Source of the DNA: Candidatus Bathyarchaeota archaeon
Lineage (GTDB): Archaea; Thermoproteota; Bathyarchaeia; Bathyarchaeales; DTEX01
NCBI GenBank assembly: GCA_963714275.1
Contig: CAVQNT010000005.1
Coordinates: 64,001-128,000, forward strand
Length of the DNA: 64,000 nucleotides
Reading direction: 5' to 3'
Position numbers and translations under genes: made by a program
Notes under the pieces: generated by a model
The model's input: the letters and a program-made list of their open reading frames with translations, nothing else
Told to the model about the DNA's origin: nothing
The model's database searches: none
Part shown: positions 6,991 to 54,590 of the stretch, piece after piece
How the letters are laid out: the number at the start of each line of letters is the position of its first letter
Numbering within the stretch: position 1 is the stretch's first letter

Positions 6991-7022
6991 ATTACCTGTC
7001 TCCTAAACGCTTTACCATTCAT

Positions 7023-8105: not shown

Positions 8106-8374
8106 ATTTTCTGTCTCCTTTTATAAATTTTCTTTTTTCTGAAAGTTCGATTTTTAATTATTCAACCGTGGATATAAAGCTTTCCAAGAGTTAATAAAAT
8201 TTACTGACAGATGAAATAGAATAATAAACTATATTACAACACTAGAGTAATAATAAATATCATTAAAATATAACCTTAGAACTAATCTTAAGGTTACATG
8301 AATATCATTCAAAAGTTAATTTATCAATAACTTTTATATACTAAAAAGGCTAAATCTTCGCTGAGGAATTTGCC

Positions 8375-8566
8375 TTGGCCGAGCAAGGAATAGAAACGAA
8401 AGATTACGATGAGATCGTCGTGAAGCTTGCCGTATCAAAAGACTACCTTAGAAAGCTCGAACTGTTAATAAACGTAAAAAGAATATTCTCAAGTAGGGCT
8501 GAGGCTTTAAGACGGTCATTAGAGCTACTATTTGACAAGTACCAAGACGCTTTGAAAGAAAACTAA
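8375..8566 (+). CDS. Ribbon-helix-helix (CopG/CdrS-like) regulator
   Basis: 63 aa; beta-strand VVKLAV followed by helices with FSSRAEALRRSL; divergent from ftsZ. Confidence 0.7.
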   Translation: MAEQGIETKDYDEIVVKLAVSKDYLRKLELLINVKRIFSSRAEALRRSLELLFDKYQDALKEN

Positions 8567-8734
8567 TAAAGACTTCACTCTACAGCATCACAAAATCTTC
8601 GTTCAATCGCCCAACCATTTTATATTTTCTATTCTGTAGCGATCAGCATTTATCTTAATGATACAACTCGCCCGAAAGAAAAGAAAATAATGGATAAAAT
8701 GTACGCGACGAGAATAATTGTTGCAATTACAATT

Positions 8735-9370
8735 TTAACCCATTCTAATGTTATCAAGTTTAGGTGTTAAGGCATCTGGAAAAGGCAGCATGAACCAAGT
8801 ATTAGATTTATAGTTTAGGTATGCTTCACCAAGTTTTTTTGTTAAGCCTTGTTCTTTAAAGTAAGCCATCAAAACGTAAGCATATGTCATTGTTCCCCAC
8901 GAAATCAATGATATCGGTCTCGCAGTCCTTAACGAAACTCCGAGAATTAATACAATTATGCCAAGATATTGCGGATGCCTAAAGATTCTATATAGTCCTT
9001 TCGTTAACAGAGCGCTACGATCTTCAACCCACAAAGCGAAGCTCCAAGAAAATATGGCTGTGCCAATCAACATTAGAATCACGGAAACTGCGATCCAAAA
9101 CGTGACTAATGGTTGTTTTATGAGGTCAGCATATAGGTATGTGAGGAAGTATAACGAACTCCCTCTACCAAATGGGTCGGATGTGTCCCGTAAAAATGGC
9201 CAAGGCAGTGTCATGACGTAATGTAGGCCTAACGGGAAAAACATAATGTATAATAGCGGATTTACGAGAATCCATATAGAAGGAATGGTTGTGAAGTAAA
9301 AATTTATTAGCATGGACGCTTCACGAATCCGCTTCCTTAGCATGCTCATTCGGTTTCCCGCCTTCATCAC
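8735..9370 (-). CDS. Isoprenylcysteine carboxyl methyltransferase/PEMT-family membrane protein
   Basis: LLTKGLYRIFRHPQYLG motif and several TM helices. Confidence 0.8.
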   Translation of the reverse strand: MMKAGNRMSMLRKRIREASMLINFYFTTIPSIWILVNPLLYIMFFPLGLHYVMTLPWPFLRDTSDPFGRGSSLYFLTYLYADLIKQPLVTFWIAVSVILMLIGTAIFSWSFALWVEDRSALLTKGLYRIFRHPQYLGIIVLILGVSLRTARPISLISWGTMTYAYVLMAYFKEQGLTKKLGEAYLNYKSNTWFMLPFPDALTPKLDNIRMG

Positions 9371-9472
9371 GTAAAATCAATAAATATTCAAAATCATATA
9401 ATGATACATCGAATAAATTATTTAGGATTATTTAACCACATTTACCAAATTGACGAAACATTGTTTAAAACT

Positions 9473-10267
9473 TTACACAAATTTTCTAATATAATTCAAA
9501 GCATATTTCAATGAGCCATCAATGTCCGTTGCAAGTTCAAATTCCATGACCATATATCCATCGTAACCAATTTTTTTTAACGCATCAATAAACTTCTTAA
9601 AGTTTATGATTCCCTTACCTGGAGTTAATCTATCATTGTCTGAAAGATGAACGTAAGCCAACCTTTCACCAGCTATTAAAACGGTTTCTTTGAGAGAGTC
9701 GTTTTCAGCGTGAATATGGAAAATATCAGCCATTACAAGAATGTTGTTTTCACTGACTTCATCGAGCATACGCAACGCATCAGCCATCGTGTTAACTAAC
9801 TGGGCATTCTTTTTACAGGCAAATTCTACAACGAAAACTGTTCCATACTGCCTGCATAGACGACTGATTTGTTTAAGGCTTTTCACAGCTTGGTTCCATG
9901 TGTCATCGTATGGGGCTTCCAGTTTTGAGCCTTGAAAAGCCCATCCCGCTTGAATGATGTTGCAGTTTAGCTCGTTAGCAATGTTCATACACTCAGTCAT
10001 GTAGGCAAATGCCCTTTTTCGGACACCCAAACTAGGAGAAGCAAGGTAAAGACCGTGCGTAACATTCAAATGCCTCGTACCTATCGCAGCCACTTTCACG
10101 CCAGTTTTTTGTAACGAATTTTTTATTAAATCCGTGTTCAATTTAGACGGCCATTCCTTAAAGTTGAGTTCAATGCCCTGATAACCTAGAACCGAGGCTT
10201 TCTCGACAATTCGGTGATACGGTAAACCAGAGTTTTCGTACATGACTGTGCTGAAACCTAACAACAA
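9473..10267 (-). CDS. Sugar phosphate isomerase/epimerase (AP endonuclease 2 TIM barrel)
   Basis: VVE, ADIFH, YVHLSDNDR-PG-G, GY-G-MVME motifs. Confidence 0.88.
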   Translation of the reverse strand: MLLGFSTVMYENSGLPYHRIVEKASVLGYQGIELNFKEWPSKLNTDLIKNSLQKTGVKVAAIGTRHLNVTHGLYLASPSLGVRKRAFAYMTECMNIANELNCNIIQAGWAFQGSKLEAPYDDTWNQAVKSLKQISRLCRQYGTVFVVEFACKKNAQLVNTMADALRMLDEVSENNILVMADIFHIHAENDSLKETVLIAGERLAYVHLSDNDRLTPGKGIINFKKFIDALKKIGYDGYMVMEFELATDIDGSLKYALNYIRKFV

Positions 10268-10407
10268 ACTTGGCGCACCTTTTTTTACGGTCTAACCTAT
10301 TTTTAGTGTCTAAGTAATAAACTTGATTAGAATATGAAAATAAAAAAAGGGGGCTCAAAGTATTTTATACTTTTACGACCCGATTTGAATATTCGCTAGT
10401 TTATTTG

Positions 10408-11800
10408 CTATATCATTTTTTTAAGTTCGTCCAACCATGGGTACAGTTTCTTGAGTCTCTGCATTGCTTCTGCCACTTTTTCTTGAGGATACTCGTAGGG
10501 TTGAAGTTTGCCATTTAGGTAATCATCATACGCTTGCATGTCGAAATACCCGTGTCCACACAGCAAGAACAGAATAGTCTTCTTTTCTCCGGTTTTCTTA
10601 CACCTCAAAGCTTCGTCGATGGCGCCCTTGATAGCGTGAGCAGGTTCAGGAGCCGGAATTATGCCTTCACTTTGTATGAAGATTTTAGCCGCATCGAACA
10701 CTTCAACTTGGTTGTACGCCCGTGACTCCATCTTCTTTTCCGAGACCAGTCGACTTATTGTAGGAGCAATTCCGTGGTAGCGTAAGCCTCCTGCGTGAAT
10801 TGGGGCAGGAATGAAATCGTGGCCGATAGTGTGCATTGGGACCAAAGGCGTCAGTCTCGCAGTGTCTCCGTGGTCAAATGTGTATTCTCCTTTTGTCACT
10901 TTTGGGCAAGCTGTGGCTTCGATGGCTATGAACTTGACGTCTTTCGGCGCTTTTCCAGTAACTTTATCATAGTAGAAGGGCCAGAAGAGTCCTGAGAAAC
11001 TGCTTCCGCCACCTATACAGCCAAATATTGTGTCCGGGTAATCGTCCACGGATTCTAGTTGCTTCTTGGTCTCTAATCCGATTACTGTCTGGTGTATGAG
11101 AACATGGTTGAAAACGCTGCCTATGCCGTACTTGACACCTTCTTTTTTTAGGGCATCCTCGACAACTTCGCTTATGGCGATTCCTAAGCTTCCCGGACTG
11201 TTTGGGTCTTCTTTGAGGATTTTTCTTCCGCTTTCTGTTTTGTCACTTGGGCTCGCGTAGACGTTTGCTCCATAGGATTCCATCATTATTCTTCGGTATG
11301 GCTTTTGGTTGTAGCTCGACTTTGACCATGTAAACTGTGCACTTTATTCCATACATCATACAACCGAAGGCTAAGGCAGAACCCCATTGACCAGCACCAG
11401 TTTCGGTGGACATGCGTTCCGTTCCTTCCTTCATGTTGTAGTAGGCTTGAGGGATAGCAGTGTTAGGTTTGTGGCTTCCCGTGGGACTGACTCCTTCGTA
11501 CTTGTAGTAGATTTTCGCAGGCGTCTTCAAAGCCCTCTCAAGTCCCAAAGCCCTGAAAACAGGCGTGGGTCTCCAAAGATTATAGATGTCTCTCACTTCA
11601 TCGGGAATGTCAATCCACCTGTCCTTACTCATTTCCTGAGCGAGGATGGCCTTCGGGAAAATCAGGGGAATAATTCCCGGTCCAGGCGCCCGTTTGTCTG
11701 GTTCTATGGATGGAGGTAAAGGTTTTGGCAGGTCAGGAAGAATGCTGTACCATTGTTTGGGTAGTTCTTCTTCGTCTAGCAATATTTTTCTTTGTTGCAC
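10408..11800 (-). CDS. trpB2: TrpB2 tryptophan synthase beta-like PLP enzyme (frameshift near 11317)
   Basis: [32 protein letters not shown]. Confidence 0.93.
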
Positions 11801-12183
11801 TTTTGTTCACCATTGTTTTATTCGTTATGAATCTTTTGCACACATTCGTCATATTTAAATCTTACGAGTACACTTCTGTTCATAACAAAAACCATAAAAA
11901 CAGCCATCACAGAAACCTTGAATAAAAGAAATAATCTAAACAAACAAATATTAAGCGCATTTCTATAAAAAAATCTATACACAATAGAAACTAACACAAA
12001 TCAATGAACAAATGGCCTAAAACAACTGAATAAACGTGCCTTAAAATGGTTGTTTTTCACAGTGCTCTGGTATTGTCACACAAACGGAAAACTCGAATGT
12101 TTCACAAAACAGACCAGTCAGAAAGCGTAGTTAAACCATCGCGCCTTATAAAATAAATTCTATATTGATTATAAAAATCATCG

Positions 12184-12277
12184 TGGTGCGGCCGCCGAGA
12201 TTTGAACCCGGGTTGTCGGCTGTCCTCTCTTCAGCAAATGGGAGGCCGGCGTCCTAACCAAACTAGACTACGGCCGC
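12184..12277 (-). tRNA. tRNA-Gly(CCC) with ~17-nt intron at 37/38 (12222-12238) and encoded CCA
   Basis: GCGGCCG acceptor stem, CT-CCC-A|intron|A loop, GGTTCAAATC T-arm, ends ACCA; BHB is relaxed. Confidence 0.88.
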
Positions 12278-12509
12278 TGTCGTTGTTAATTTTGTGGGTT
12301 GATTTAAATCTCTTGTGTGCGTGTAGCATATGAGACACGATTATGTTTATACTTTTTCTTCATATTTTTTCAAACAAGGTTAATGTTTACAGGCACGCAA
12401 TGGATTAATTGTTCATTACACATAAATACACCCGCAATTCAGAGAATAATAAATAGATTCATTGTGGTTCTAATTCAAGTTAAAAGAGAGAAGTGAAAGG
12501 AACTTTTAT

Positions 12510-14334
12510 ATGTGTGGAATATTCGGTTGCGCGTTAAAGAACGGAAAGGCTGCTCCCCTAATTCATGCTGCCCTAAAAAGGCTCGAATACAGAGGATACG
12601 ACTCTGTCGGCGAAGCTACCATTCAAAATGGTGTTCTCTACATAAAGAAAGACCAAGGAAAAATTGACGATGTTCACAAAGCCATTGACTTAGACAACCT
12701 GCCAGGCAACATAGGAATCGGGCATACAAGATGGGCTACGCACGGAGCTCCCTACCAAGTTAATGCACATCCGCACACTGACTGCGAAAACAAGATCGCT
12801 GTTGTTCACAACGGCATAATTGAGAATTTCTCTGCATTAAGAAAGGAACTGGAAGGTTTAGGACACGAATTCAAGTCTAAGACTGACACCGAGGTTATCC
12901 CGCACCTTATTGAAGAAAACATGAAGAAGGGGATGTCACTCGTTGAAGCAGTCCGCGACTCATTGAAAAGGCTTAACGGTTCTTATGCCATTGCAGTCTT
13001 ATCAAACATTGAACCTGATAAGATTGTTGTCGCTAGAAACGAGAGCCCGCTTGTCATTGGCGTCGGTGAAGAAGCAACCTATTGTGCATCAGATATTACA
13101 GCTTTCCTTCCCCTGACAAACAGAACGGTGATACTCGAAAACGGCGAATTAGGCATACTAGAAGCTGACAAGTACGAGATTTGGAATATTGACGACTGGA
13201 AGCCAGTAAAAAGAGAACCGGAACAGGTTACTTGGACCGTGGAAATGGCTCAGAAGCAAGGTTATCCTCACTTTATGATTAAGGAGATTTATGAACAGCC
13301 AAGATGCTTGAGGGACACTCTTAGGCTGCAGGACTTGTACCTCGACCTTATGGCTACGTTTCTGGACCGAGCTGGAGAAGTGTTTCTCGGTAGCTGCAGG
13401 AACCTCTTATCATGCTTGCCTAGCGGCCTCGTACATGTTTTCAGATCTTGCTTTCTTGGCGACTCATCCAGTTATTGCGTCTGAGTTCATTGAACAGGAA
13501 GGGATGGCGATTAACATCAACAGCACAATCCTCGCTGTGAGCCAATCAGGCGAAACTGCTGATACGCTGGCTGCTGTGGATTATGCTCGAAACCGAGCTG
13601 CCACAATATTGGGATTGACGAACGCCGTTGGTTCAACTTTAACCAGAATCTCAAGAGTATACATAGTTCAGCAATCAGGTCCCGAGATCGGCGTCGCAGC
13701 GACAAAGACATTTACGTCTCAGATGTCAGTGCTTGCGCAACTCGCCTTAAGAGTCTCGAAGATTCGGGGCAAAATCGGGCACCGACAGATAGAGGAGCTT
13801 GAAAAAAGCGTCAGCCAGATTCCTGACATAGTTGAGGCAACGATCAAGAAAAACGAACCGAAGGTTCTAGAAGTTGTCAAGAAACTTAAGAAAAAGCCAG
13901 TCTTCTTCTTTCTAGGCAGGGGGATAAGCTCAGCGACAGCGCAAGAAGCCAGACTTAAGATCATGGAGATCGCCTACGTTCCCTCAATAGCCTATCCTGC
14001 GGGAGAAAGCAAGCATGGTCCCATAAGCCTTGTGGAACCTGGGTTTCCCGTGGTGTTCGTGTGTCCTAGGGATGAGACACGCAAGACGATAGTTGGGAAC
14101 ATAATGGAAATGAAGGCGCGGGGAGCCTCAATAATCTCCGTCATCGAAGAAGGAGATGAGGAAATCAAAAGCCTGTCAGACGAGTATTTCGAGATACCCG
14201 GAAGCCTGCCTGAAATACTGACGCCGATTGCCTTCATTGTACCCTTACAGCAGCTTGCCTATTACATGGCTGTGGAAAAAGGGTTAAACCCCGACATGCC
14301 GCGGAACCTCGCAAAATCCGTCACAGTAAAATGA
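12510..14334 (+). CDS. glmS: Glutamine-fructose-6-phosphate transaminase (frameshift near 13389)
   Basis: MCGIFG, RGYDS, GHTRWATHG, SQSGETADT, PRNLAKSVT. Confidence 0.96.
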
Positions 14335-26594: not shown

Positions 26595-26918
26595 GACAAT
26601 GACCTTCCTTTATAGATAGGAGGCGTAAACACTAAAAAATCGCAGATAAGACATATTCTACAGAAGATAAGGCTAAAAAAAAATTTAACGCCAGTAGTGT
26701 GTAGAATACTTTTCCTTTGTCATTTAGGTCTTCTTTTTTTCAGTTATGAAACCTTCCATAATACTTCCATAACAGAAAAAGCGTTGCAACTACGAAAGCT
26801 ATCTCACTATACTTGAATATCCTTACGATAAAATATCACTTTTTCAAAATTTTGTTGCTTGCTGAGACCTTTTTTATATCGCAACATTTTTAGCATTGTT
26901 AAATGTCAAAACATCTAC

Positions 26919-29468
26919 ATGGCTTACTGGGCGAAGACATCTGAGGAGACGATTAAAGAGTTCTCTTCATCCGAGAACGGCCTTGACGAGAAGGAAGCCG
27001 GCGAAAGGCTGAAGAAATACGGCCTTAACGATATTCCTATTAGGAAAAAGAAGTCCGCTCTTAGCTTACTCTTCTCACAAATCAAGGACCTGTTAATCAT
27101 CACGCTGATAATCGCGTCACTTATTTCTCTTTTTACTGGGGGAACAAACGAGGCAGCAGCAATTCTCGCCATAGTTATCATAAACATCTCAGTAGGATTC
27201 ATCCAAGAGTATAAATCGGAAAAATCTCTGCAAAAGCTGATCAAATACATAAAGTACGAGGCGAAGGTTCTAAGAAACGGTGAAGTCACCGAAATTGAAA
27301 CAAGGTACATCGTGCCTGGCGACATAGTTCTTCTAGAGACCGGAGATAGGGTTCCTGCTGACCTTCGCCTTATAGAAGCGGATGAGCTCAGACATCGATC
27401 AATCCATAGTCACAGGAGAATCGTATCCCGCGCATAAGAGTTCGTCCCCCCTCAAAACTGAAGCTTCAGCGCCTCAGAATATGGAGAACATGGCTTTCAT
27501 GGGAACCCTAGCCGTAAACGGCAAGGGAAGGGGAGTCGTAGTGGCCACTGCGATGAAAAGCACCTTTGGGAAGGTAGTAGGTCTTCTGAAAACAGAGGAA
27601 CCAGAGACAAACTACCAGAGGAACATAAGGAAATTTGGAAGCCTTCTGATAAAAGGAATAACTATTGGAATAGTATTCATATTCATAGTGAATGCGATAA
27701 CAGGATTTCTGTCGAATTCTTTAACAGCAGAGAGAATCCTTGACTCGGCTCTCTTCTCTTTGGCTCTAGCTGTCGGCATAATACCGGAATCGTTGCCCAT
27801 AATCATCACAATTGGGCTTTCTAGAGGAGCCACACTGATGGGCAAAAAGGGGGTTATTGTCAAGAAGTTGAGCACCATAGAAGACTTAGGGAATATGGAT
27901 ATTTTCTGTTCAGACAAAACAGGGACTCTAACTGAGAACACGATTTCTTTAATCGATTACGTTAATCTGAACGGTGATAAAGATGATGAAATGCTACAGC
28001 TCGCGTCCTACTGTACATCAGTTGTACAAACAACGAAAACGATGACTGGCAATCCGTTGGACGTTGCCTTAATGCAATATATCAAAGGAAAAGGCATTCA
28101 GAACCAGTTCGATGAGCGTGTTGAACTTATCCCATTTAATTATTCCAGAAGAAGGATGAGTGCAGTTGTCAAGAGAAACGGCAAGCCGTTGCTTGTCTGC
28201 AAAGGGGCTCCGGAAAGCGTAATCAAAGCATCAACAAAGATGAAAATGAAAGGAAGAATCGTCAAAATTGATCAGGCTAAGGTTCAAGAAGCCTCTGAAA
28301 CACTGTTCAGAAAAGGCATTCGAGTTATCGGTGTCGCAGTAAAGGATGTTGCAGAGAAGCTAGACTACAATGAAGACGAAGAGAACAACATGACCTTTCT
28401 TGGATTTCTATGCTTCAAGGATCCCTTGAAAGCGACAGCCAAAGAATCCATAAACCAGTTCCGTGAGCTTGGTGTACAGGTCAAAATTCTAACCGGAGAC
28501 AACCCAATCGTCACAAAAACCATCGTTGAAGAAGTAGGCATCGACGCAGAAGAAATATTGTTAGGAGAAGACGTTGATGCAATGGACGATGTACAGCTTG
28601 AAGAGAGCTGCGGAGAATACAAACGTTTTTGCAAGATTGACCCCTGAACACAAGGCAAGGATCGTGTCTCTTCTCAGCAAGCATGGGCATGTGACAGGCT
28701 TCCTGGGAGACGGCGTTAATGATGCTCCAGCATTAAGATATGCTGACGTAGGGATTTCTGTTGATGGTGGTGTAGATATTGCTAAAGAAGCAGCTGACAT
28801 AATATTGACCCAACCAAGTTTAGACATTATTTCTGGAGGAATTATTGAGGGCAGAATCACCTTCAGTAATACGACGAAGTACATTCTGAATACGATATCT
28901 GCCAACGTGGGAAACATGGCAACGCTTGCAATAATTTCGGTCATACTGGACTTCCTGCCTATGCTCCCCATTCAGGTGCTTCTAACGAACTTGATCAGCG
29001 ACGGACCTTTACTTTCAATCTCAACGGATAAGGTCGATGAAGAAGAGCTGAATCAAACCTAGAAACTGGAATATTAATCTGATAAGTAGTTTCGCCAAGT
29101 TCTTTGGTGGAATAAGTTCTGTCTTTGATTTCATAACTATAATCCTAACATTATTTCTAGTCGGGTCCAACATTGCCTTGTTTAGGACTTGCTGGTTTAT
29201 CGAGTCGACATTATCAGAGATCATAGTCACTTTCGCAATAAGAACAAAAATGAGATTTTACAGGAGTAGACCAAGCAAAATTCTCATTTTATCATCAGTG
29301 GTATTCGGTCTTCTGACAGTCCTATTACCATACTCACAGTTCAATACCGTCTTTGAATTCTTTCCACCGACTCCATTTCTCCTATCAATTATCTTTAGTA
29401 TATTACTGCTTTACTTTGTAGTGGTTGAATTGGTGAAGCACTTCTTCCACAAGAAGATTCATTTATGA
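26919..29468 (+). CDS. mgtA: P-type ATPase, Mg2+-transporting MgtA-like (several frameshifts)
   Basis: TGES, PESLP, CSDKTGTLT, KGAPE, TGDN, GDGVNDAP, FRTCWFIES, RT...RSRPS. Confidence 0.85.
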
Positions 29469-44543: not shown

Positions 44544-45394
44544 ATGTCTCGTGAAGACCGTGTTCAATTAGTCGCAGGCATCGATGTTGGAGCAAGCACC
44601 ACTAAGGGCGTCATACTGGGAAAATCGGGAATAATACATCAATGTTTCATTGAAACCTTGAATGACAAGTCTTCAACTTTGCGAATTTTAAAAAAACTTC
44701 TTTCGAGGGTCGATGATGTTTCTTCAATAAAAAAAGTTGCTGTCTCAGGTGGCGATTCGCGGATAATTGTAAAAGAGTTCTTTGGGATACCAGTCCAGAA
44801 GGTAGATGAGATAGCAGCAACTGGCATAGGAGGTCTTTTCCTGTCAGGTAAGAATCAAGCATTAATCGTCAGCGTGGGAACTGGAACAGGTGATAATCAG
44901 CTGCCCGTAACAGTGGAAAAAGGATTAACCATGTTGGCGGCACAGGCGTTGGTGGAGGAACGGTTATGGGGTTGGCGAGAAGAATACTCGGTGTCAACGA
45001 CTTTCAGGATTTAGAAACTTTGGCATTAAAAGGCAACCTAAACCATGTTGATCTGACTGTGGGAGACATTGTGGGGGGACCTGTTGGGATTGTACCTGCT
45101 GAAGCGACCGCGTCAAACCTCGCTAGACTTGACGACGAAACTTTTCCGGAGGATGTGGCTGCTGGTATCTTTAACTTGGTTTCTCAGGTTGTGGGCGTTG
45201 TCTCAGTTATGGCTGCAAAATCCTGTAACCTCGAAGAAGACGTGGTTTTTGTGGGGAGATTAGTAAAAAGCCCATTAGTGTCAAACATCATCCATGAAAC
45301 TGTCAGAGTCTTCGGCGTGAAAGCCTTTGTGCCAGAAAATGGTGAGTATTGCATGGCTGTGGGGGCTGCATCGTACATTCTCAGGAATTATTGA
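44544..45394 (+). CDS. Type II pantothenate kinase-like ASKHA protein (frameshift near 44890)
   Basis: GIDVGASTTK, VSVGTGT, GGTGVGGGTVMGL, VDLTVGDI, TASN. Confidence 0.78.
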
Positions 45395-45498: not shown

Positions 45499-46044
45499 TT
45501 GATTTCTGATTCGATTCTTGATAAGAAGGTTCAGATTCTCCTTAAACTTAGAGGTTACAAGCTTCTCGGCGAAGAAGAAGTGAAAGAAGGCAAAGTTTTC
45601 ACGGTTGAAGGTCGTAAAAAGAAAAAACTAATCGTGTGGGCGATAACCAACGTTGAAACCATAGGCATCCGCTACATAACCCAACTGTCGAAACGGATTG
45701 AAACCCAAAGCCTCGATGGCGGAGTAATAATCTCTAACGGTAGGTTTACATACTCAGCCAAGGCGAACTCGAGAAAGAAAAGAGTCGAGCTTATCCCGCC
45801 CAACTTTCCTTCATTCAACATATTTGACCACTATCTTGTGCCAACACACGAGATACTTACTTTAGAGGAAAAAGAGGCGGTTCTTAAAAAATACCGGGTG
45901 CATCCTTACCAGCTTCCTCTGCTGAGAACTTCAGACCCAATTTCCAAGGTTATTGGCGCCAGACCAGGAGACTTAGTTAAGATAACTAGGGAAAGTCAAA
46001 CAGCCGGTGAACATGTCTCGTACCGATACGTCGTTGAAGGCTGA
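45499..46044 (+). CDS. rpoH: RNA polymerase subunit Rpo5 with ~100-aa N-terminal extension
   Basis: C-terminal HYLVPTHEIL, QLP, SDP, GDLVKITRESQTAG, YRYV. Confidence 0.9.
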   Translation: MISDSILDKKVQILLKLRGYKLLGEEEVKEGKVFTVEGRKKKKLIVWAITNVETIGIRYITQLSKRIETQSLDGGVIISNGRFTYSAKANSRKKRVELIPPNFPSFNIFDHYLVPTHEILTLEEKEAVLKKYRVHPYQLPLLRTSDPISKVIGARPGDLVKITRESQTAGEHVSYRYVVEG

Positions 46045-46108: not shown

Positions 46109-47293
46109 GTGGTTCATGTGAATAAGAACGTTAAGGTCATCTTTGTCTCAGGTCTCCTTTCTGCTTTTATTATTGGAATTTTTGAGCTTCTTTTTCCGTT
46201 CTACCTTGAATACAGGGGTATTTCACTTGTTGACATGGGTTTGATCTTCAGTGTTTCAATGCTTGTCATATCTTTTCTCCGCATCCTTCTGGGAGAGTAT
46301 GCTGACGTTTATGGCAAAAAGAAGGTCTATTTGGCTTCGTGCACTATGGGGATTGCGTCAAAGGCAGTCTTCCCTTTTTCATTTAACGAATTACAGATTC
46401 TGGGCACAAAGTTCCTGAATGATTTGCAGGACAACCTTCGATTAACGGTTCATAACATTATGCTTTACGAAAATGTGAGGAACTCTTATGCTAAACTTCT
46501 GTCATGGTTCACGACAATTGAATTCGTTCTTCAGGCTTCGGGTACCATTTTCTTTGCTTTATTCTTGTCTTACCTGAATTTTTCGGGGCTTTTTCTTATT
46601 CTTGCATCAGTGGAAGCTGCTAAATTCCTCATATTGCTATTGTACCGAGAGGACAACAGGAAAGAAGGCAAAAAATTGTCTCTTAGAGAGGCTTATAGCT
46701 TCAAGATTGAAAGGAACCTTCTTATTTTGTCTTTGACATCGGCTGTTGCGTCGCTCGGGTTCGGAATTGCCCACGGTTTCCTTTTGCCATTGTATTTTAT
46801 GGGTAAATACAACCTTGATGTTGCACAAATATCCATCATTACGGTGCTGCATAGGCTGTCTTTCATGACTACGCCTTTAGCCGATAGGTTCATAAGAAAG
46901 TTGGGACTGCGGTCAACATACATCTTTTCAACCTCAGCGTATGCTCTTTCTTTTTTGGTAATAGGTTTTTGGACTTTTCCGATTCCAGTGTTTGTGGCTT
47001 TGTTCCTCGTCCACGACCTTTTGGGAGGAGGAATCGGGATGACAGCGATGAGCGTAATTACGCAGAATCTTACCGACGATGAAACGCGTGCAAGGCAAAT
47101 TAACACTTTTAATGCAATCCAAACTCCTATGACGATTTTGGCTCCAAGCATATCAGGAATGTTGGCAGCAATGAGCTGGGACTACACCTTCATTGCTGGA
47201 GGATTTTTTTATTGCATCTCATTAGCCATTTTCTCCGTTCTCTTGAAAAGTGAATCTCTCATCCCAAAATCTACCATCAAACAAGAAGTTTAA
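46109..47293 (+). CDS. MFS transporter
   Basis: GEYADVYGKK and LADRF motifs, about 12 TM helices. Confidence 0.88.
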   Translation: MVHVNKNVKVIFVSGLLSAFIIGIFELLFPFYLEYRGISLVDMGLIFSVSMLVISFLRILLGEYADVYGKKKVYLASCTMGIASKAVFPFSFNELQILGTKFLNDLQDNLRLTVHNIMLYENVRNSYAKLLSWFTTIEFVLQASGTIFFALFLSYLNFSGLFLILASVEAAKFLILLLYREDNRKEGKKLSLREAYSFKIERNLLILSLTSAVASLGFGIAHGFLLPLYFMGKYNLDVAQISIITVLHRLSFMTTPLADRFIRKLGLRSTYIFSTSAYALSFLVIGFWTFPIPVFVALFLVHDLLGGGIGMTAMSVITQNLTDDETRARQINTFNAIQTPMTILAPSISGMLAAMSWDYTFIAGGFFYCISLAIFSVLLKSESLIPKSTIKQEV

Positions 47294-47430
47294 TTATTGC
47301 TGAAGACCATTAATCTCGAATCTTCAATAATTCAGAATACTGCTCTTAGGTTCCACTAAAAGTTAATTTTTCTGTCAGTATCTTGGATGTTTAAATACAG
47401 GCATGATATATAGAGAAATTAAAGTTTGAA

Positions 47431-47914
47431 CTAGTTTTTCAAGTATGTTCGGTAGTTCACGAGTTTTATGCTTTTTCGCGTAACTATTTCTTTAGTTTTT
47501 GGACTTAACAAACATTTTAATTCTGCTAGTCTATGATTTCCTACTCCTTCAGGCATCACGTGAGACGGTTCCGTATGCATAAGAGCTTGAGATTCAAGTG
47601 AGTCTACCAAGAGATGGTTAACTAACAACCAAAGTCCCGGAGTTAATTCATCAAGTTGCTTAGTGAGATTTGATTCCTTTTCTGAAGGATGAATAGTATA
47701 TACACCCGCAACAATCTTCTAGTCTGAATGACCTGAAATTGGCAGCTTATATTCCGCTGAAAGTTCCTTCACTACCTTAAGGAATTCTTTCTCTCTGCCA
47801 GATTCTTCGCTATCGCCTATGTAGTGTGTGTCAAGATAACATGGATTTACGCCCCATTTCATTAGAAGCTCAATTTGGGCTTTAATCTCATTTTTCACTT
47901 CAATGTAGTCAGGA
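47431..47914 (-). pseudogene. ChbG/YdjC-family deacetylase, 3' half (disrupted by insertion; in-frame TAG near 47720)
   Basis: PDYIEVKNEIKAQIE...YLDTHY...LTPGLWLLVNH...RLAELKCL continues the frame of 52586-52915. Confidence 0.85.
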
Positions 47915-47932
47915 CAACAGAATAGTTAACTT
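47908..47932. repeat. attL: core GTCAGGA plus arm CAACAGAATAGTTAACTT
   Basis: Arm is an imperfect inverted copy (14/18) of the right arm. Confidence 0.8.
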
Positions 47933-47961
47933 TATATATTAATCAGTAGTATTCTTTCAGT

Positions 47962-49162
47962 ATGGCAAAATTAGAGTATCTTAAACAATATGGCAGCGTC
48001 CAAACCGTTAATGCATACAAAAGCGGTTTGAAAGATTTTTTCCAAGCAATCTATAACGAACGAAACGGGCTTGAAGGATTAGCTGAAAGATACCTTAATG
48101 ACAAGCGGAATTATGAAGAAGACATTCAGACCTTTTTAATAGCGATCAAGGACTACGCACCTAAAACCGTAAAACTTAGACTTACTGCAGTTCGTATGTT
48201 TCTTTTAGAGAATGGAATAGAGATGTCTCAACAGTTCTGGAGAAGGATAAGAGGAAGAGTAAGAGGAACGAGAGGCTCTAACGCTTGACAAGGTCCCGAG
48301 CAATGAAGAATTAAGGAAAATCATGACACACTTACCAGTTCAAGGAAAGGCTCTGTTTCTGACAATGTGCAGTTCAGGAATGAGGATCGGTGAAGCTCTT
48401 AGTCTTGTGCCTGAAAACATAGAGTTCGGAGATCCTACACGTATTAACATTCAAGCGTCGTTTACGAAGACCAAAAACTCGAGGATAGCGTTTATTTCAA
48501 AAGAAGCCAGCGAAGCCGTCGAGGAATGGCTCAAGGTCAGAAAAGACTATTTGGGTTCAGCCGTCGCAAGAAGCCGATTTGGAAAGTCTATTGATGATCC
48601 TAGGATTTTTCCATTCACAAGTTTTAATGCAAGGTATATTTGGAATATTGCCTTAAAGAAGACTGGAAACGGGAAAAAGGACACTCAGACAAACTATCAT
48701 CTTGTGCATCCTCACGTATTGCGAAAGTTCTTTCGGACTCGGATGGCTACAATTATTCCCGTCGACGTAACCGAAGCTTTGATGGGTCATGAAGGTTATT
48801 TGACTGAGGTTTACCGTAGATACACGCCTGAGGACTTAGCCAAGTTCTACAAGCAAGGAGAACTATCTATTTCAATATTCGGCGGCGTAGTGGATCTACA
48901 ACAGATTCAAAAACAAGTTGATGAAAAAGTAGATGATAAAATAGGAGCTTTGCAGAAAGTCATAGACCGTTATGCTACTGAAAATTTGGAGTCTAAAAGC
49001 CGTCTCTCTAGTATAGAGCTTGAAATCACACAATTATCAGAGATTTTCAAAGAATTTAAGAAGAAAGCTCTAAAAATTTTTCAACTGTCATATTTTCCTG
49101 TTTCAAAATTAAGACTTTCCGACCCAAAAAGACCATTGTTTTATCTTATCGCATTAAGATAA
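47962..49162 (+). CDS. Tyrosine integrase with core-binding domain and C-terminal coiled coil (frameshift near 48270)
   Basis: SGMRIGE, TKTK, HPHVLRKFF, LMGH, YLTEVY. Confidence 0.92.
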
Positions 49163-49530
49163 ACTCAGGGGTCCGACCAAAAAACACCATATTTAATGTT
49201 ATATATGATAATATTAAATGGCTCATTGTTTTATCCTTCGCAATAAATCAGTTATAATTATCTAAACTAAGGATAAAGGCTGAAACAGCTATAATTCACT
49301 CAACTAAGAATATAATAAAAGTCATCATGAAGAATATAATTAAACAGCTATACTTTTGAGGCGAAAAGGCTAGGGTAAACACCTCAGATATGCCACTACA
49401 ATTTTTTAAACTGTTTCCATAAACTTATATACATCGTTAAGTTAGATCAGGGCATTGGTCATTAGGTTGTGCGTTTATGGTATGACGATAAAATCGCAAG
49501 ATAAACGTCATTCAAACCATAGGACAACAC

Positions 49531-49752
49531 TTGAAAAATTCTGAAAAAACGACTGAATCAGTAAAGATTCTCGACCACGATTTTGAATTTCCGTCTTGTA
49601 TTGGCAGAAAGACCGCTGAACCGCTGAGTACATGCAAAGGCTGCGAGGTTGCAAGCCTTTGTGAATGGCTGAAAATCAAGTTTGTTTCCCGAGAACCTGT
49701 AATCCAGTTCACGGAAAAATTTGAAAAAATTTTAGGAGCAATAAAAATTTGA
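49531..49752 (+). CDS. Small Cys-rich element protein
   Basis: C-x11-CKGC-x5-C. Confidence 0.55.
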   Translation: MKNSEKTTESVKILDHDFEFPSCIGRKTAEPLSTCKGCEVASLCEWLKIKFVSREPVIQFTEKFEKILGAIKI

Positions 49753-49813
49753 CGAAGGTTTCAAGGCAACGACTGAAACGGAAAACACCAAGCACTGATA
49801 GAAGGAAAAGGTA

Positions 49814-49987
49814 ATGACTTTCAAGTTTTTCTTTTATGCTCCGTCAAGTAGAATCTTGTTCAAAATTTGCGACGTATGTAAAAAACCATTCGTAAATGGT
49901 GATTTATGCGTTTCAAGGCTTGGCGGATCTTCAATTCATGTTATCGGTCATTACTGTCAAGGTTGCTATGAAAAATTGTTCAGGTGA
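49814..49987 (+). CDS. Small Zn-finger protein (57 aa, missing from ORF track)
   Basis: MTFKFFFY...CDVCKKPFVNGD...HYCQGCYEKLFR; paralogue of the next gene. Confidence 0.7.
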   Translation: MTFKFFFYAPSSRILFKICDVCKKPFVNGDLCVSRLGGSSIHVIGHYCQGCYEKLFR

Positions 49988-49991
49988 CTGA

Positions 49992-50204
49992 ATGGTTTTT
50001 AGAACGTATGTTTTTCAGTCTTGGGCTCGGTTTTCAGGCTTGAGATGTGACGTTTGCGGTCACCGATTTGTAGAAAATGACATCGTAGTTACTAAGACTC
50101 AAGGTGCAAAAGAAAGGAAAAAATGGGAAAGAAAAAACGTCTTAACCCATTATTGTGGCAAATGTTATAATAATTTGTATTTTCAAGGGGAGGTGATTGA
50201 ATGA
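49992..50204 (+). CDS. Small Zn-finger protein
   Basis: CDVCGHRFVEND...HYCGKCYNNLY. Confidence 0.7.
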   Translation: MVFRTYVFQSWARFSGLRCDVCGHRFVENDIVVTKTQGAKERKKWERKNVLTHYCGKCYNNLYFQGEVIE

Positions 50205-50419
50205 AAAGAAGAACACCAATAAGACATCATGTTTCAAGCCATGTTCGGGATGGACATCATATCCACGATTATATGAGAGGTCGAGGGAACCGAGGAAATT
50301 CGTATGTTCGAAGGACTAGGATCCAAGAAGGGATTTACTGCAAAACTGATAAGTCTATAAAAACGAAACATTGCGGGAAATGCAGCGATAAGCTGAGAGG
50401 ATTATTCAACATCTCATGA
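50201..50419 (+). CDS. Small His/Arg-rich basic protein
   Basis: MKRRTPIRHHVSSHVRDGHHIHDYMRGRG...HCGKC; GGAGGTGA RBS; ATGA overlap with previous gene. Confidence 0.65.
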   Translation: MKRRTPIRHHVSSHVRDGHHIHDYMRGRGNRGNSYVRRTRIQEGIYCKTDKSIKTKHCGKCSDKLRGLFNIS

Positions 50420-50885
50420 GCCAAGAGCTTACCACGTGACCTTTGGATACTTAGACGGTTCTAATGAAGTCGTCGAAATAATTGCAAGGTCGCCAAAGGA
50501 GGCTTTACACGGTGCTGATAATAAGAGAAAACGAAAGGATCAGAGAGCTGTCTCAGTGGTCGTAACGAATTCTATCGGTGAAATCGTCGGAAAACTGGCT
50601 CGAGGAATCGGTTCAGGCGTCAAAAAGGTTGCTAAGGGAGCTATGATTTTAGGAAAACAAGCCTATTGGAAAGGTAAAGAGTTTGCTTATGAACATGAGC
50701 TCGGTGAAAAATTAAAGAATGTCGGTCGTTCTGCTGCTGTTGCACTAGCAAAACACCAAAAAAACGTTAAGGCTGAACAGCTCATAAGAAAAGCGTTCAG
50801 TTCTGACCGTGTCGAATCAGTTAAAGCAAGAGTCGAACTTAAACAAAAATATCCAGAAATCTACTTGGCGGCTCGTTTCAGGTGA
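50416..50885 (+). CDS. Basic hypothetical element protein
   Basis: 149-aa K/R-rich ORF with amphipathic GKLARGIGSGVKKVAKG segment; true start probably at the ATGA overlap at 50416. Confidence 0.6.
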
Positions 50886-50933
50886 TAATATTGACTAAAA
50901 AGACCGATTTCAAGGGTTATAGAAGGTGACTTA

Positions 50934-51083
50934 ATGGACGTTTTAAATAACCTTGTTCAGTATCTCATGATTCACCCTTGGCATTGTGTTTTAGCTGTTG
51001 CGATTGCTGGCTCTGTAATTTTGTATTTTTTGTATGACTGGCTCGGAAATCAGTCCTCGAGACCTCGGAAAAGTGGATGGTGA
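50934..51083 (+). CDS. Small single-TM protein (49 aa, missing from ORF track)
   Basis: MDVLNNLVQYLMIHPWHCVLAVAIAGSVILYFLYDWLGNQSSRPRKSGW; AGGTGA RBS. Confidence 0.6.
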   Translation: MDVLNNLVQYLMIHPWHCVLAVAIAGSVILYFLYDWLGNQSSRPRKSGW

Positions 51084-51562
51084 AGACTTAGGCATTTGTA
51101 GAGGAAAAGCTCGACCTTTCAATGTAAAAGATGCCCATTGTATGAGCTAACTGTCTATTTAATAAAAAATTAGTAAAAATCGGCGATGGTGACGCTGACG
51201 CTGCGTTACGATATCAACGATGGACCCCTTAGAACCTTGTTTTAGTAAACCATTTAATAAACTGAAAGCCATGATTCAATATAATTAGTAATCTTAAGTC
51301 TAAGATATCGAATTCGAAGACCTCTTCGATGCAGTAATGCCCATTCCCTAGGGGAAAATAATTCTTTTTTAAGGTTCTTTTAATGGTCTCATACAAAATT
51401 ATATATATCACACTAAATAGTCATTTAGTGTGAAACGTTTGGTTTTCAGCGGAAATTACTAAAAAGTCTGTTTTCCGTTTAGAGGAAGAAGACATAAACC
51501 GAAAAAAAAATAAATGTGTGTGCTAAAACCCGACTTTAAAAATTTGGAAGTGTCGAAACAAT

Positions 51563-51802
51563 TTGAAGACTATAGCCCAAATAGTTAGTGAGAGTGGACA
51601 CAGTTACTATTTGGTTTTGAACGAAGTGTTAAGGCATAATGAAGAAGTTAAGAGCCTTGGTTACTGTTCACGCTGTAGAAAGGCGAAGAGTGAGGCTGAG
51701 ACGGTATTAATTCCGACTGGTTCACGCAGAGATTTGGAACACGCTGCAATGATGGAATATGCAATGGCTCAAGCCAAGGCTCAAGGTAAAAAAGAGGTCT
51801 AA
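51563..51802 (+). CDS. Small protein with HTH-like start and CxxC
   Basis: KTIAQIVSESGHSYYLVLNEVLRH...YCSRCRK. Confidence 0.55.
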   Translation: MKTIAQIVSESGHSYYLVLNEVLRHNEEVKSLGYCSRCRKAKSEAETVLIPTGSRRDLEHAAMMEYAMAQAKAQGKKEV

Positions 51803-51807
51803 AAACA

Positions 51808-52522
51808 ATGTTAAAGAAATCTAGATATCGAAATAAGAGAGAAGAAACTCTTTCAGCGGTTGAATTTGAAGGATTTTATGAGAATGCCAAGAAGCTTGAA
51901 GAACTTAGAGAAATTAATAGAAAAACGGCTGCAGGTCCAGCCGCATTGAGAATTAAACCAATTTCTGTTTGTGGTCTTCTCAGCATTCTTTTCTATACTG
52001 GATTAAGGATAACTGAGATTTGTGGTGATCCCATTCACATTTACAAAGTTAAAGTATGGGATAATACCACAAGTCCAAAAACTTGGACTGGTGAATATGA
52101 AGAAAAGAAGTCTGAAGAGATCCACGGCATACTTAAAAAGAATGTTGAAATTGTAGGAGATAAGTGAAGAATTACCGCAAGAGAGGTTCGAAAACGTGGC
52201 AAAAGACTTTCACCTCTTTTTATTCCGATTGACCGTTTAGGTGTTCAAAGTATAATTGAAGCTTGGAAGCTGGCAAAGGGTCCAGAAGATAGAATTTTTC
52301 CAATATGCCGCTGGACTGGCTGGTTTTTAATCTCAAATGTTACGAACGGGCGATTATATCCTCATTATTTTCGCCTCAATAGAGACTTCAAAATTCGCAG
52401 AAAATAAGAAGACTACATTAATAGAATTATTAGCTTGGTTCGGCTGGAAACAACCTGAAACCGCAAGTCACTATTTAATTGCTGCGGGACGAACGACCGA
52501 AAATATGGCTGACCGATTATAA
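51808..52522 (+). CDS. Second tyrosine recombinase, catalytic domain only (two frameshifts)
   Basis: YTGLRITE, bridging frame RITAREVRKRGKR...RLYPHYFRLNR, WFGWK, ASHY. Confidence 0.8.
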
Positions 52523-52568
52523 TTATGACAGTGGAATGATAGCTGGCTACGGCTGAGAGATTATAAAT

Positions 52569-52592
52569 AAGTTGACTAATTAGTTGTCAGGA
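52569..52592. repeat. attR: arm AAGTTGACTAATTAGTTG plus core TCAGGA
   Basis: Inverted relative to the left arm; core duplicated. Confidence 0.8.
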
Positions 52593-52915
52593 TTACTGTC
52601 AAAGAATTCCCGTGGAGACCTATGAAAAAAGCCATCATCATCCGTGATGCTTGATAAGTGGTCATATGGAAGCACTGGCCTCCATGGGTATCCTCTCCAT
52701 TCTCCAATGACTGCCAGATGGACGCCTAAGCACCAAGATGGATTAACCTTCGCCATTTCAGCTGCTTCACGAGCCCAAGGAGTAGGTGCCAATATGGCAG
52801 CGCAGGTTAGAATACCTTCTTTAAAGGCTTTGGACACAGCCAAGTTGCATGAATGCAGACTGCCCATGCCGTCGCCACGGACAATAAGCTTAATGCCTTT
52901 ATCTGAGGATCGCAT
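52586..52915 (-). pseudogene. ChbG/YdjC-family deacetylase, 5' half
   Basis: LIVRGDGMG (family consensus xDDxG), LGVHL, GEW; breaks at NPD exactly at the att core. Confidence 0.85.
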
Positions 52916-52994
52916 AGTATCGCCTGCTGTGAATATTATTGACTATGTTTTTTCAAAATTTTTTGTTAGTTGTTAGTAACCCATCGTAAAATGA

Positions 52995-53409
52995 TTATGG
53001 GAGTCTAAAGTAGTATCTTGGCCATTGAGGCCATGTTGAAGAGGACTCGGTGTCGAAGTCTACTTCCAGCTCGATTCCAACCTTTAACTTTTCGTGTTCA
53101 ACGTTTCTTATCATTCCAGGCAGCCTAAGCCCATTTTCCAACTCTACGATGCCGTATGCGTAGGGAGCCATGTTCTGAAACAGTTCAGGAGCAATGTGGA
53201 TAACGGTGTATGTCGCCAGTTTCCCTCTCGGCTTAAGCTGGGTCCATGCAAGCTCTTTTGAATAGCAGTTTGAACACACGGGTCTCGGGGGCAAATACAA
53301 GGTTCCGCATCGAGCGCATTTAGCTGCCATCAGCTTTCTCTTTCAAGGACTTGAAGAACTGCTCAATAGTGAACGGAGGCACATTAACCTGCTGACCTGT
53401 TCCTTCCAT
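52995..53409 (-). CDS. DUF35 Zn-ribbon/OB-fold thiolase partner (frameshift near 53340)
   Basis: CARC..PPRPVCSNC, TYTVIH, PYAYGIVEL. Confidence 0.9.
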
Positions 53410-54590
53410 CATTTACTCCTCCTGAAAACGTGGACCAGACACGAAGCTCCACTTCCGCCAAGATTTTGCGTCAAACCAACACTGCAACCTTCGACCTGCC
53501 GTTTTTCAGCTTGCCCCGTTAACTGAAGGAAAATTTCGTACACCTGAGCTATGCCTGTTGCACCAACCGGATGCCCTTTAGATTTTAAGCCGCCACTAGT
53601 ATTGACTGGAAGGTCTCCATCCAAAGTTGGCACGCCCTTTTCGATGAATTTTCCTCCTTCTCCAGGCTTACAGAATCCCAAGTCTTCGTAGGCGATTAAT
53701 TCAGCTATCGTGAAACAATCGTGCACCTCAGCTATATCTACGTCGGCAGGTTTTATACAAGCCATATTGTAGGCTTCTTTCGCTGCGTTTATGGTAGCTT
53801 TTATTGAGGTGAAGCTTTCCCTTTGGAAAAGTCCAAGGGTGTCGCTTGCGTGACCTGAACCTGTTATGTAAACCGGGTTATCTGCGTATTTCTTGGCAAT
53901 CTCCGGTTTCGTTAGAACAACGCAGCTGGCTCCATCCGAAATTAGGGAGCAGTCATAAAGCTTAAGGGGGGTCGCAATCATCCTCGAAGCCATCACTGTT
54001 TTAAGCGAAACCTCTTTTTGGATGTGGGCCTTCGGATTTAAGGAACCGTTATGGTGATTTTTCACCGCAATGAGACCCATCTGCTGCTCAGTTGTGCCAT
54101 ATTCATGCATGTGAGCCGTAGCCATCAACGCGAAGAGTCCCGGAAACGTGATGCCGTTCCACTGTTCAAAAGGATAGTCTGCTGCCATTCCCAGAAACTC
54201 GGTGGTTTCTAAAGTGGTTTTCTTCGTCATCTTCTCGAACCCGCCCACCAGAACAACATCATAGAAGCCGGATAGTATGCTGAAAATCCCAGTCCTCAAC
54301 GCAGCGGCAGACGAAGCGCACGCAATCTCAGTTCGGATTGCTGGAACAGGCAGAAGCCCTGCCCAGTCTGAAAGCATAGGCGCCGAGTGACCCTGGTGTT
54401 CGAAGCTTTCGCTCATCATGCCGATGAAGAGACCTTTAACGTCTTTTTTCGGGTTCAAGTTTGGGCATCTTTCAAAAGTTTCTAATGCTGCTTGGGCGAA
54501 CAGTTCTCTTCCTGAAAAGTCTTCCATCTTGCCGAACTTGGACAACCCCGCTGACACGATGGCGACAAGCGGCTTTCCTTTCAACGCCAA
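53409..54590 (-). CDS. Archaeal acetyl-CoA acetyltransferase (SCP2-type thiolase)
   Basis: EIACASS, SDGA, EVHDCF, SGGLKSKGHPVGATG. Confidence 0.93.
   Translation of the reverse strand: MALKGKPLVAIVSAGLSKFGKMEDFSGRELFAQAALETFERCPNLNPKKDVKGLFIGMMSESFEHQGHSAPMLSDWAGLLPVPAIRTEIACASSAAALRTGIFSILSGFYDVVLVGGFEKMTKKTTLETTEFLGMAADYPFEQWNGITFPGLFALMATAHMHEYGTTEQQMGLIAVKNHHNGSLNPKAHIQKEVSLKTVMASRMIATPLKLYDCSLISDGASCVVLTKPEIAKKYADNPVYITGSGHASDTLGLFQRESFTSIKATINAAKEAYNMACIKPADVDIAEVHDCFTIAELIAYEDLGFCKPGEGGKFIEKGVPTLDGDLPVNTSGGLKSKGHPVGATGIAQVYEIFLQLTGQAEKRQVEGCSVGLTQNLGGSGASCLVHVFRRSK

Follow-up and report, generated by a model that had tools for sequence, protein, structure and literature searches.

A small integrated element with two tyrosine recombinase genes inside a ydjC gene of Bathyarchaeia

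Bathyarchaeia are among the most abundant archaeal groups of sediments and, to our knowledge, their mobile elements are almost uncharacterised beyond viruses. The locus described here raises the question of what has split a chromosomal gene of such a host, by which enzyme the inserted DNA entered and whether its own genes are still intact. The window, a stretch of 64,000 nt analysed as a whole (G000:C5:64001-128000), belongs to the assembly GCA_963714275.1 of Candidatus Bathyarchaeota archaeon, a genome (G000) of 10 contigs and 2.64 Mb. In this window, a YdjC/ChbG-like gene on the minus strand is split at 47914/52586 by 4,671 bp, and the 7-bp sequence GTCAGGA is repeated on both sides of the inserted DNA. 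The insertion carries a full-size tyrosine integrase gene at its left end and a shorter tyrosine recombinase gene, here termed rec2, at its right end. The interpretation that is considered likely is a cryptic integrated element of Bathyarchaeia of 4.68 kb, which entered ydjC recently and site-specifically by means of its integrase and in which rec2 has an accessory function.

The insertion, its exact boundaries and its empty site

The two halves of the split gene belong to a single YdjC/ChbG gene. The N-terminal half (52586-52915, minus strand) comprises 110 codons ending in ...DSNPD, matches Pfam YdjC with 72.2 bits over profile positions 1-89 and is 72% identical to its orthologue in genome G009. 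The C-terminal half (47431-47914, minus strand) starts with PDYIEVKNE... and covers profile positions 97-146 within the stretch 47913-47722. A first-pass annotation, made from the letters alone, had taken the halves for one deacetylase gene that excision would rejoin in frame, and both points were borne out: the profile positions are contiguous across the halves, and the rejoined protein, as computed, has 269 amino acids (aa) and aligns end to end with the G009 orthologue, without a gap at ...FFDSNPD/YIEVKNE.... The insertion lies at codon 110 of approximately 269, in the middle of the gene, and destroys ydjC. The direct repeat that had been reported to bound about 4.67 kb was found with the coordinates and sequences described. 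Its left copy (47908-47914) forms the core of the left attachment (att) site, attL, its right copy (52586-52592) forms the core of attR, and the identity between the two copies extends no further in either direction. In addition, the inserted DNA is poorer in G+C (about 0.31-0.43) than the DNA to the right of the element (0.43-0.49).

The empty site, which had been named as a way to check the insertion, is present in public metagenomes. Each of the 11 listed runs contained less than half of the words sampled from the stretch, and the four best (X1-X4) were compared. Contigs from three of these four runs (X1, X3 and X4, each from a different study) join position 47907 directly to 52586. They skip 4678 bp, the seven letters of the repeat match both sides and zero extra letters stand between. 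Between the window and the empty-site contig of X1, which has 1455 bp and a depth of 22, there are differences at 4 of 508 positions in the left flank, and at 3 of 415 positions plus one gap in the right flank. These contigs demonstrate the insertion, its exact boundaries and the empty site, and they add to the boundary repeats the second feature, an unoccupied site in relatives, by which an att-flanked integrated element is recognised. Since strains with flanks that are about 99% identical lack the element precisely, the insertion is recent and polymorphic among strains. The element itself was probably active until recently. Its interior was almost uncovered in the four runs, with the exception of a 151-bp contig of X4 (49819-49969, 3 differences) and short conserved pieces of the integrase. 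The description of the locus as a small integrative element with a readable att site outside tRNA genes also holds: the target is ydjC, and the only tRNA gene of the window lies at 12184-12277. The locus thus represents an element whose limits are fully defined and for which occupied and empty alleles exist in nature.

The target gene bears a lesion of its own. The C-terminal half of ydjC contains an in-frame TAG at 47719-47721, aligned with Glu in the G009 orthologue. A Glu codon is present at this position in contigs of X2, X3 and part of X4, while TAG is kept in X1. Because the X1 contig, which has the empty site, also keeps the TAG, this is a real nonsense codon. Either the TAG is older than the insertion or X1 is derived from precise excision, and ydjC was probably already dead before the element arrived. 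An intact ydjC paralogue, 46% identical, is encoded on contig C1 of the same genome. As a separate observation, the G009 orthologue (locus L002, G009:C4, approximately 1670-1880, minus strand) has an in-frame TGA near codon 47, and the decay of this ydjC lineage may not be confined to a single genome.

The left-end integrase and the arms of its attachment site

The gene next to the left boundary (47962-49162, plus strand) encodes a full-size tyrosine integrase with a SAM-like N domain, a catalytic domain and a coiled-coil tail. Its assembled sequence is divided over two frames (47962-48288 and 48263-49162), and, as judged by comparison with five homologues, the shift is at approximately 48270-48278, at ...RGxR/ALTLD.... 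The catalytic domain matches Pfam Phage_integrase with 53.5 bits (cut-off 27.1) over profile positions 7-166 of 172, and the N domain matches Phage_int_SAM_1 with 18.2 bits, which is under the Pfam cut-off. The motifs GMRIGEA, HPHVLRKFFR and MGHEGYLTEVYRRY, presumably the catalytic Arg box, HxxR, His/Trp and Tyr, are conserved with five homologues. Altogether, 748 homologues were detected at E≤0.001 among 1703 candidates, and most of the matches listed are single proteins with a length of 360-390 aa. By sequence, XerA of P. abyssi is the closest protein of solved structure (4a8e, E 6.8e-7, with the homologue P0012 as query). The relatives of the integrase, as well as those of rec2, come from Bathyarchaeia/Bathyarchaeota records, and among 47 genomes of the host's family, 2 contain the integrase family. 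In SSV-type (type I) integrases, attP lies within the integrase gene, which is split on integration, whereas here the whole gene is contained in the element, at a distance of 48 bp from the repeat.

The core site of a tyrosine recombinase usually consists of two inverted binding arms around an overlap of 6-8 bp, and the ends of the element can be read in the same way. The integrase-proximal arm, CAACAGAATA-GTTAAC (47915-47930), contains a hexamer at 47925-47930, 10 nt from the repeat. The distal arm, GTTGAC-TAATTAGTT (52571-52585), contains a hexamer at 52571-52576, 9 nt from the repeat. At the predicted circular junction, these inverted arms match at 12 of 16 positions around an 8-bp spacer, which is equal to the 14 of 18 around a 6-bp spacer given by the first-pass annotation, and a match this good was found in only 0.42% of 5000 random 67-mers of the window. 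Within 47000-53500, hexamers of the type GTTRAC/GTYAAC are limited to 47617 (outside the element), 47925 and 52571, at a genome density of about one per kb. Of seven integrase genes of the family that were examined, six have a single hexamer of this type in the 120 bp upstream, in comparison to about 11% expected by chance.

The host genome harbors four paralogues of the integrase, including that of the window, and genomes of the same genus were used as empty sites to delimit the elements of the paralogues. The first, on contig C6 (C6:189310-198840, corresponding to 3310-12842 of locus L137), measures 9.5 kb and has an 8-bp repeat (ATATTTAT), with empty sites in G001, G004 and G005. GTTAAC stands 9 nt from the repeat on both sides. 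When attP is reconstituted, the spacing between the hexamers is 26 nt for the C6 element as well as for the window element. The integrase of C6 is frameshifted as assembled. The second, C5b (C5:370-17433, locus L136), spans 17 kb and has an 8-bp repeat (AATAATAA), with an empty site in G002. Its paralogous integrase, located at the right end, is apparently intact, and on this side GTCAAC is found 8 nt from the repeat. For the integrase copy on contig C2, the left boundary lies about 93 bp upstream of the integrase, and the right end could not be placed. In the window element, C6 and C5b, as well as beside the left boundary of C2, the integrase gene reads inward from a position 50-115 bp away from a boundary. 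Direct repeats of at least 12 bp near the four integrase genes comprise only chance-level 12-14-mers.

As for the other genes of these elements, a 218-aa open reading frame (ORF) right after the C6 integrase (L137 4536-5192) has a weak Phage_integrase match (E 4.6e-4), and hhalign gave no link between it and rec2 (probability 0.7%). Four other scanned ORFs of C6 are ORFans, and six large ORFs scanned in C5b showed no Pfam family. rec2 was not found in either element.

This comparison demonstrates an arm architecture that is common to the paralogous elements, as anticipated by the first-pass annotation, which had proposed that the same termini might occur at other loci with different central sequences. 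Judging from the sequences, the integrase family appears to insert at varied non-tRNA sites that have only the overlap in common with the element. Because the elements of paralogous integrases have the same arm layout, 8-bp repeats and non-tRNA sites, the left-end integrase is the likely integration enzyme. Similarly, the hexamer arms recur at C6 and C5b, elements that lack rec2, and upstream of integrases of the family, and therefore the termini of the window element fit the integrase family and not rec2. Most likely, we infer, the element would have existed in a circular form with the attP core GTTGAC-N9-GTCAGGA-N10-GTTAAC. Both inverted arms would be bound by the full-size integrase, whose gene lies about 50 bp inward of the left end. 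The circle would then exchange strands over its 7-bp overlap with ydjC, which contains the same 7-mer. This exchange would split ydjC and leave one 7-mer at each end.

The same ends could also belong to a transposon of the cut-and-paste type that is mobilised by a trans-acting enzyme. Its terminal inverted repeats would be imperfect, and the 7-bp repeat would be a target-site duplication. Here, the imperfect inverted-repeat ends (12 of 16) beside an exact 7-bp repeat, together with target sites that differ among related elements, are what such a transposon would present. However, no transposase family was recognised in any scanned ORF, while two tyrosine recombinases are encoded. Furthermore, elements of the same arm architecture differ in the length of their repeat (7, 8 and 8 bp), and the hexamers are placed 8-10 nt inside the ends, like core-type recombinase binding sites, and not at the tips. 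Cut-and-paste transposition is therefore considered highly unlikely, and integrase-driven entry is retained as the preferred reading.

Several known systems can be compared with the element. The core with its two inverted arms around a 6-8-bp overlap resembles the sites of XerA and Cre, although the recombinases of the window, unlike XerA, are encoded by a mobile element and do not serve chromosome dimer resolution. Tn554 of Staphylococcus utilizes two tyrosine recombinases, TnpA and TnpB, and for both Tn554 and Tn916/Tn1549, tyrosine recombinases catalyse the movement to non-tRNA sites, with a central region of 6-7 bp. Coupling sequences of the Tn916 type need not be identical, whereas the flanking 7-mers of the window element are. 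These transposons have no sequence relationship with the window element beyond the superfamily, and the paralogous elements do without rec2.

Among archaea, the sections on integration sites in a survey of Thaumarchaeota integrated mobile genetic elements give att repeats as short as 8 bp, with a median of 17 bp, and 14 of 68 elements in protein-coding genes, always in a 3'-distal position with the ORF preserved (Krupovic et al., 2019, PMC6563490). As those sections describe them, the Thaumarchaeota cryptic integrated elements are likewise small, encode a tyrosine integrase, have very short att repeats and had their boundaries checked by empty sites; their targets are tRNA, intergenic and protein-coding sites, the last being the category of ydjC (PMC6563490). 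In contrast to what is described there, the window element has a 7-bp repeat, a mid-gene insertion that destroys the ORF and a second, short recombinase, and it also differs in host class and in integrase family, with the hexamer-arm architecture as a feature of its integrase clade (PMC6563490). The passages on mobile genetic elements of Atabeyarchaeia report an 11-bp attachment motif for Yucahu-i; these elements resemble the present case in their kilobase scale, in the first position of the tyrosine integrase gene and in the shortness of the attachment motif (Valentin-Alvarado et al., 2024, PMC11529989). According to the same passages, the Atabeyarchaeia elements were seen in circular and integrated form and carry superfamily 3 (SF3) helicases or resolvases, whereas neither a circular form nor a replication gene was found for the window element (PMC11529989). 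A literature search yielded no description of this integrase family, of its att architecture or of two-recombinase archaeal elements. The element is a further, fairly ordinary example of archaeal cryptic integrated elements, and the three elements of the host genome with a common att layout (an overlap of 7-8 bp and, in two cases, a hexamer spacing of 26 nt) provide a testable recombination substrate.

The short recombinase rec2

At the opposite end, rec2 (51808-52522, plus strand) terminates 64 bp from the right boundary and is interrupted as assembled by a TGA at 52165-52167 and a frameshift at approximately 52388-52395. The window fragments of the gene have no Pfam match, and a SAM-like N domain is not recognisable. 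When read through, with X at the stop, rec2 has 10 homologues besides its own fragment, 29-51% identical, and the intact close homologues have 212-289 aa and 41-51% identity. The TGA is aligned with a conserved Leu/Ile, and the frame switch follows directly after RLNR. The motifs GLRITEI, HxFRLNR, WF(A/G)W and a C-terminal Tyr are conserved in the family, with R118, H224, R227, W248, W251 and Y260 invariant in seven homologues, and the window gene retains GLRITEI, HYFRLNR, WFGW and SHY. The family is barely detected by Pfam, and the homologue P0128 passes Phage_integrase with 36 bits (cut-off 27.1). A structural model of the homologue P0127, with a predicted local distance difference test (pLDDT) score of 68, gave no Foldseek match at E≤0.001. 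Using VIA-align, residues 59-222 of this model superpose on the catalytic domain of Cre/Tre (Z 9.3, root-mean-square deviation 3.1, 123 residues), and XerH (Z 8.3) and XerA (Z 7.7) were also matched, with poxvirus topoisomerase IB comparable (Z 7.9). Tn1549 integrase structures are weak fold matches of the rec2 homologue model.

Both end genes are demonstrably tyrosine recombinases, as the first-pass annotation had claimed, but both are interrupted as assembled, a point that it had overlooked. By motifs and model, rec2 is a very divergent short tyrosine recombinase of a Bathyarchaeia-specific family. Its relatives were recovered at 24 genome loci, all in Bathyarchaeia, and 80 of 106 metagenome loci were kept, while a profile scan of viral_contigs returned no relative.

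A second recombinase 64 bp from the right boundary could also indicate that two elements have been fused or placed in tandem, one with the integrase and one with rec2, each moved by its own recombinase. The closest relative of rec2 (L015/L039) is accompanied by a 189-aa protein that corresponds to the window ORF pair 50201/50436; the segment 50201-52522 thus has rec2 and this protein in common with L015/L039, where no integrase of the window family was seen. Against such a composite, there is neither a third GTCAGGA nor an internal hexamer-arm site, and the empty-site contigs lose all 4678 bp in one step. Moreover, both ends carry the arm type that is linked to the integrase family, and in L042, L044 and L046 rec2 resides inside elements with another integrase. 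A fusion of two elements is hence very unlikely, and the insertion is best treated as one element with an integrase of its own.

The company of rec2 at other loci bears on its role in this element. Close relatives on loci of at least 10 kb are found in L015, L042, L044 and L046, and the last three also carry a full-size integrase of another family. The integrase of L046 adjoins tRNA genes, making this the sole locus with tRNAs among nine rec2 loci scanned. In L024, an integrase of the window family and a rec2 relative are 8.3 kb apart, and in G010:C14 a 139-aa ORF located about 2 kb from an integrase of the window family is related to rec2 (hhalign probability 96.7%). Including the window element, the rec2 family therefore rides with unrelated full-size integrases in six cases (window element, G010:C14, L024, L042, L044 and L046). 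A jackhmmer count gave second integrases near rec2 at no fewer than 4 of 39 loci of at least 8 kb, a count that is insensitive, as the rec2 ORFs themselves were not recovered by it. Since rec2 recurs as a second recombinase in elements with their own integrase, it is most likely, we infer, an accessory enzyme rather than the integrase, which might act, for example, in multimer resolution of the circular form or as an excision aid. rec2 is no regular component of the elements of this integrase and constitutes a separate family that was not found in C6 and C5b and accompanies unrelated integrases. For the further suggestion of a satellite of a larger element there is no support, as nothing indicates a helper. 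The short recombinase family emerges as a recurrent passenger. A more far-reaching idea, which must be regarded as doubtful, is that rec2 defines a new class of accessory tyrosine recombinase that partners full-size integrases and controls excision direction or resolves multimers of tiny circular replicons; if true, these would be the first two-recombinase integrative elements described in archaea.

The boundaries of other rec2 elements were also searched for. The sequence downstream of rec2 shows nothing conserved among 13 loci compared. The comparison of the L015 element with 25 relatives of its genome gave no match left of 4317 and no empty site, and for the G010:C14 element a search for a hexamer plus repeat detected no distal end within 17 kb. 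A 64-bp stretch of L015 (4388-4451), which closely follows the rec2 homologue and precedes a TBP gene, recurs with 94% identity in a different genome, at G076:C1:147464-147527. It contains no tRNA according to ARAGORN, and TBP genes appear to be multi-copy in that lineage. Beside the 59%-identical integrase of G010:C14, an island (L133 9130-17010) with the truncated rec2 relative contains, by eye, a 678-aa ORF (probably an ATPase) as well as a probable endonuclease III-like gene and a C5 cytosine methyltransferase-like gene. This island looks like a defence or modification island.

Interrupted genes, cargo and neighbouring DNA

The breaks in the integrase and rec2 genes permit an account in which the element has the same origin and is now an immobilised fossil, with the integrase frameshift and the rec2 stop and frameshift as real inactivating mutations. 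As assembled, the element contains exactly these breaks (one in the integrase, one TGA and one frameshift in rec2), and the adjacent ORF pair 50201/50436 is a single protein elsewhere. However, the insertion is young and polymorphic among strains with nearly identical flanks, and the same assembly also breaks housekeeping genes. In the window, GlmS (12510-14334), a P-type ATPase (26859-29062, in three pieces), an ADP-forming acetyl-CoA synthetase (48-1596) and a Fumble-type (pantothenate-kinase-like) kinase (44544-45394) are all split into overlapping ORFs, with Pfam profile positions that are contiguous across the splits. A comparison of 31.5 kb of the host genome (including C2:529000-556000) with G002 of the same genus, at 85-91% identity, yielded 15 isolated indels that are not multiples of three where G002 has a long ORF. 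The ORF of the host genome is broken at eight sites in these 31.5 kb where G002 is continuous on both sides, which amounts to approximately one break per 4 kb, so that about 1.2 breaks are expected by chance in 4.7 kb.

The position of these breaks points to one sequence motif. Eight of the 15 indels are located within 10 nt of AGCT, compared to a background of 7.8% per 21-mer (conservative binomial p of about 8e-4). Beside the element, AGCT has been miscalled at two documented places, at which all covering public contigs read AGCT and the window has AGTG (47664-5) or AGT (extra C after 52976). All three recombinase lesions are at would-be AGCT sites, one step away from the motif: AGAGGCT at the integrase shift, AAGTGAA at the rec2 stop and AGAGACT at the rec2 shift. 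AGCTA at the rec2 stop would give the conserved Leu. Taken together, this suggests systematic assembly errors in the genome, perhaps at a methylated AGCT motif. The frameshifts of the integrase and rec2 are probably artefacts, and for the rec2 TGA the chances of an artefact are about even. An immobilised fossil is rather unlikely, and the genes of the recently integrated element may be intact. Apparent pseudogenes in this genome need caution, as they may represent assembly errors near AGCT.

Several observations weigh against a recent, integrase-driven entry of an element with intact genes, beginning with the interrupted state of both recombinase genes in the assembly. The rec2 TGA can be reached from TTA (Leu) by a single substitution, which makes genuine nonsense possible, and the change from AGCT to AGTG was seen at 0 of 164 AGCT sites of G002 that were compared; this miscall was therefore dropped as a genome-wide signature. 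With regard to the arms, the integrase gene of G010:C11, of the same family, has no hexamer upstream, and the distal arm of C5b has GCCAGC in place of the hexamer. Identical repeats of 7-8 bp are, in addition, the product expected of staggered-cut transposition. The joined 19-mer of the circular junction had 0 matches in viral_contigs, and no circular junction was seen. The four compared runs hardly contain the element itself. The non-integrase DNA of the element was found in 1 of 401 Bathyarchaeia genomes searched, which is the host genome itself, and consequently there is no second copy for a comparison of the termini.

Apart from the recombinases, the element carries small genes. An AT-rich intergenic stretch (49237-49319) is 83% identical to C7:103047-103128 of the host genome. 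It is followed by three small ORFs of 73, 57 and 70 aa (49531-50204, plus strand), the last two of which are paralogous (mutual tblastn match, 30% identity) with a zinc-ribbon-like CxxC...CxxC pattern and only sub-threshold Pfam zinc-finger matches. The two ORFs of 72 and 149 aa at 50201-50885 (plus strand, different frames) jointly match the 189-aa protein of L015 (1925-2494), and their split may be another frameshift. The pair has no Pfam family, and the 189-aa protein gave no ESM Atlas match. Further downstream, a 49-aa ORF with one hydrophobic segment (50934-51083, plus strand) and a 79-aa ORF directly upstream of rec2 (51563-51802, plus strand) have no Pfam family. A perfect palindrome with 11-bp arms, TCACACTAAAT / ATTTAGTGTGA, and a 4-bp spacer (51408-51433) has no conserved counterpart in 12 other rec2 loci. 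In agreement with the first-pass annotation, no Rep or other replication gene, capsid gene or transposase gene was found by Pfam among the ORFs of the element.

Outside the element, the ORF at 45499-46044 (plus strand) fuses the C-terminal domain of RNA polymerase subunit H/Rpb5 (102 bits) to an N-terminal restriction-endonuclease-like (Mrr_cat) domain and would, by its domain arrangement, represent a long, Rpb5-like form of the archaeal subunit.

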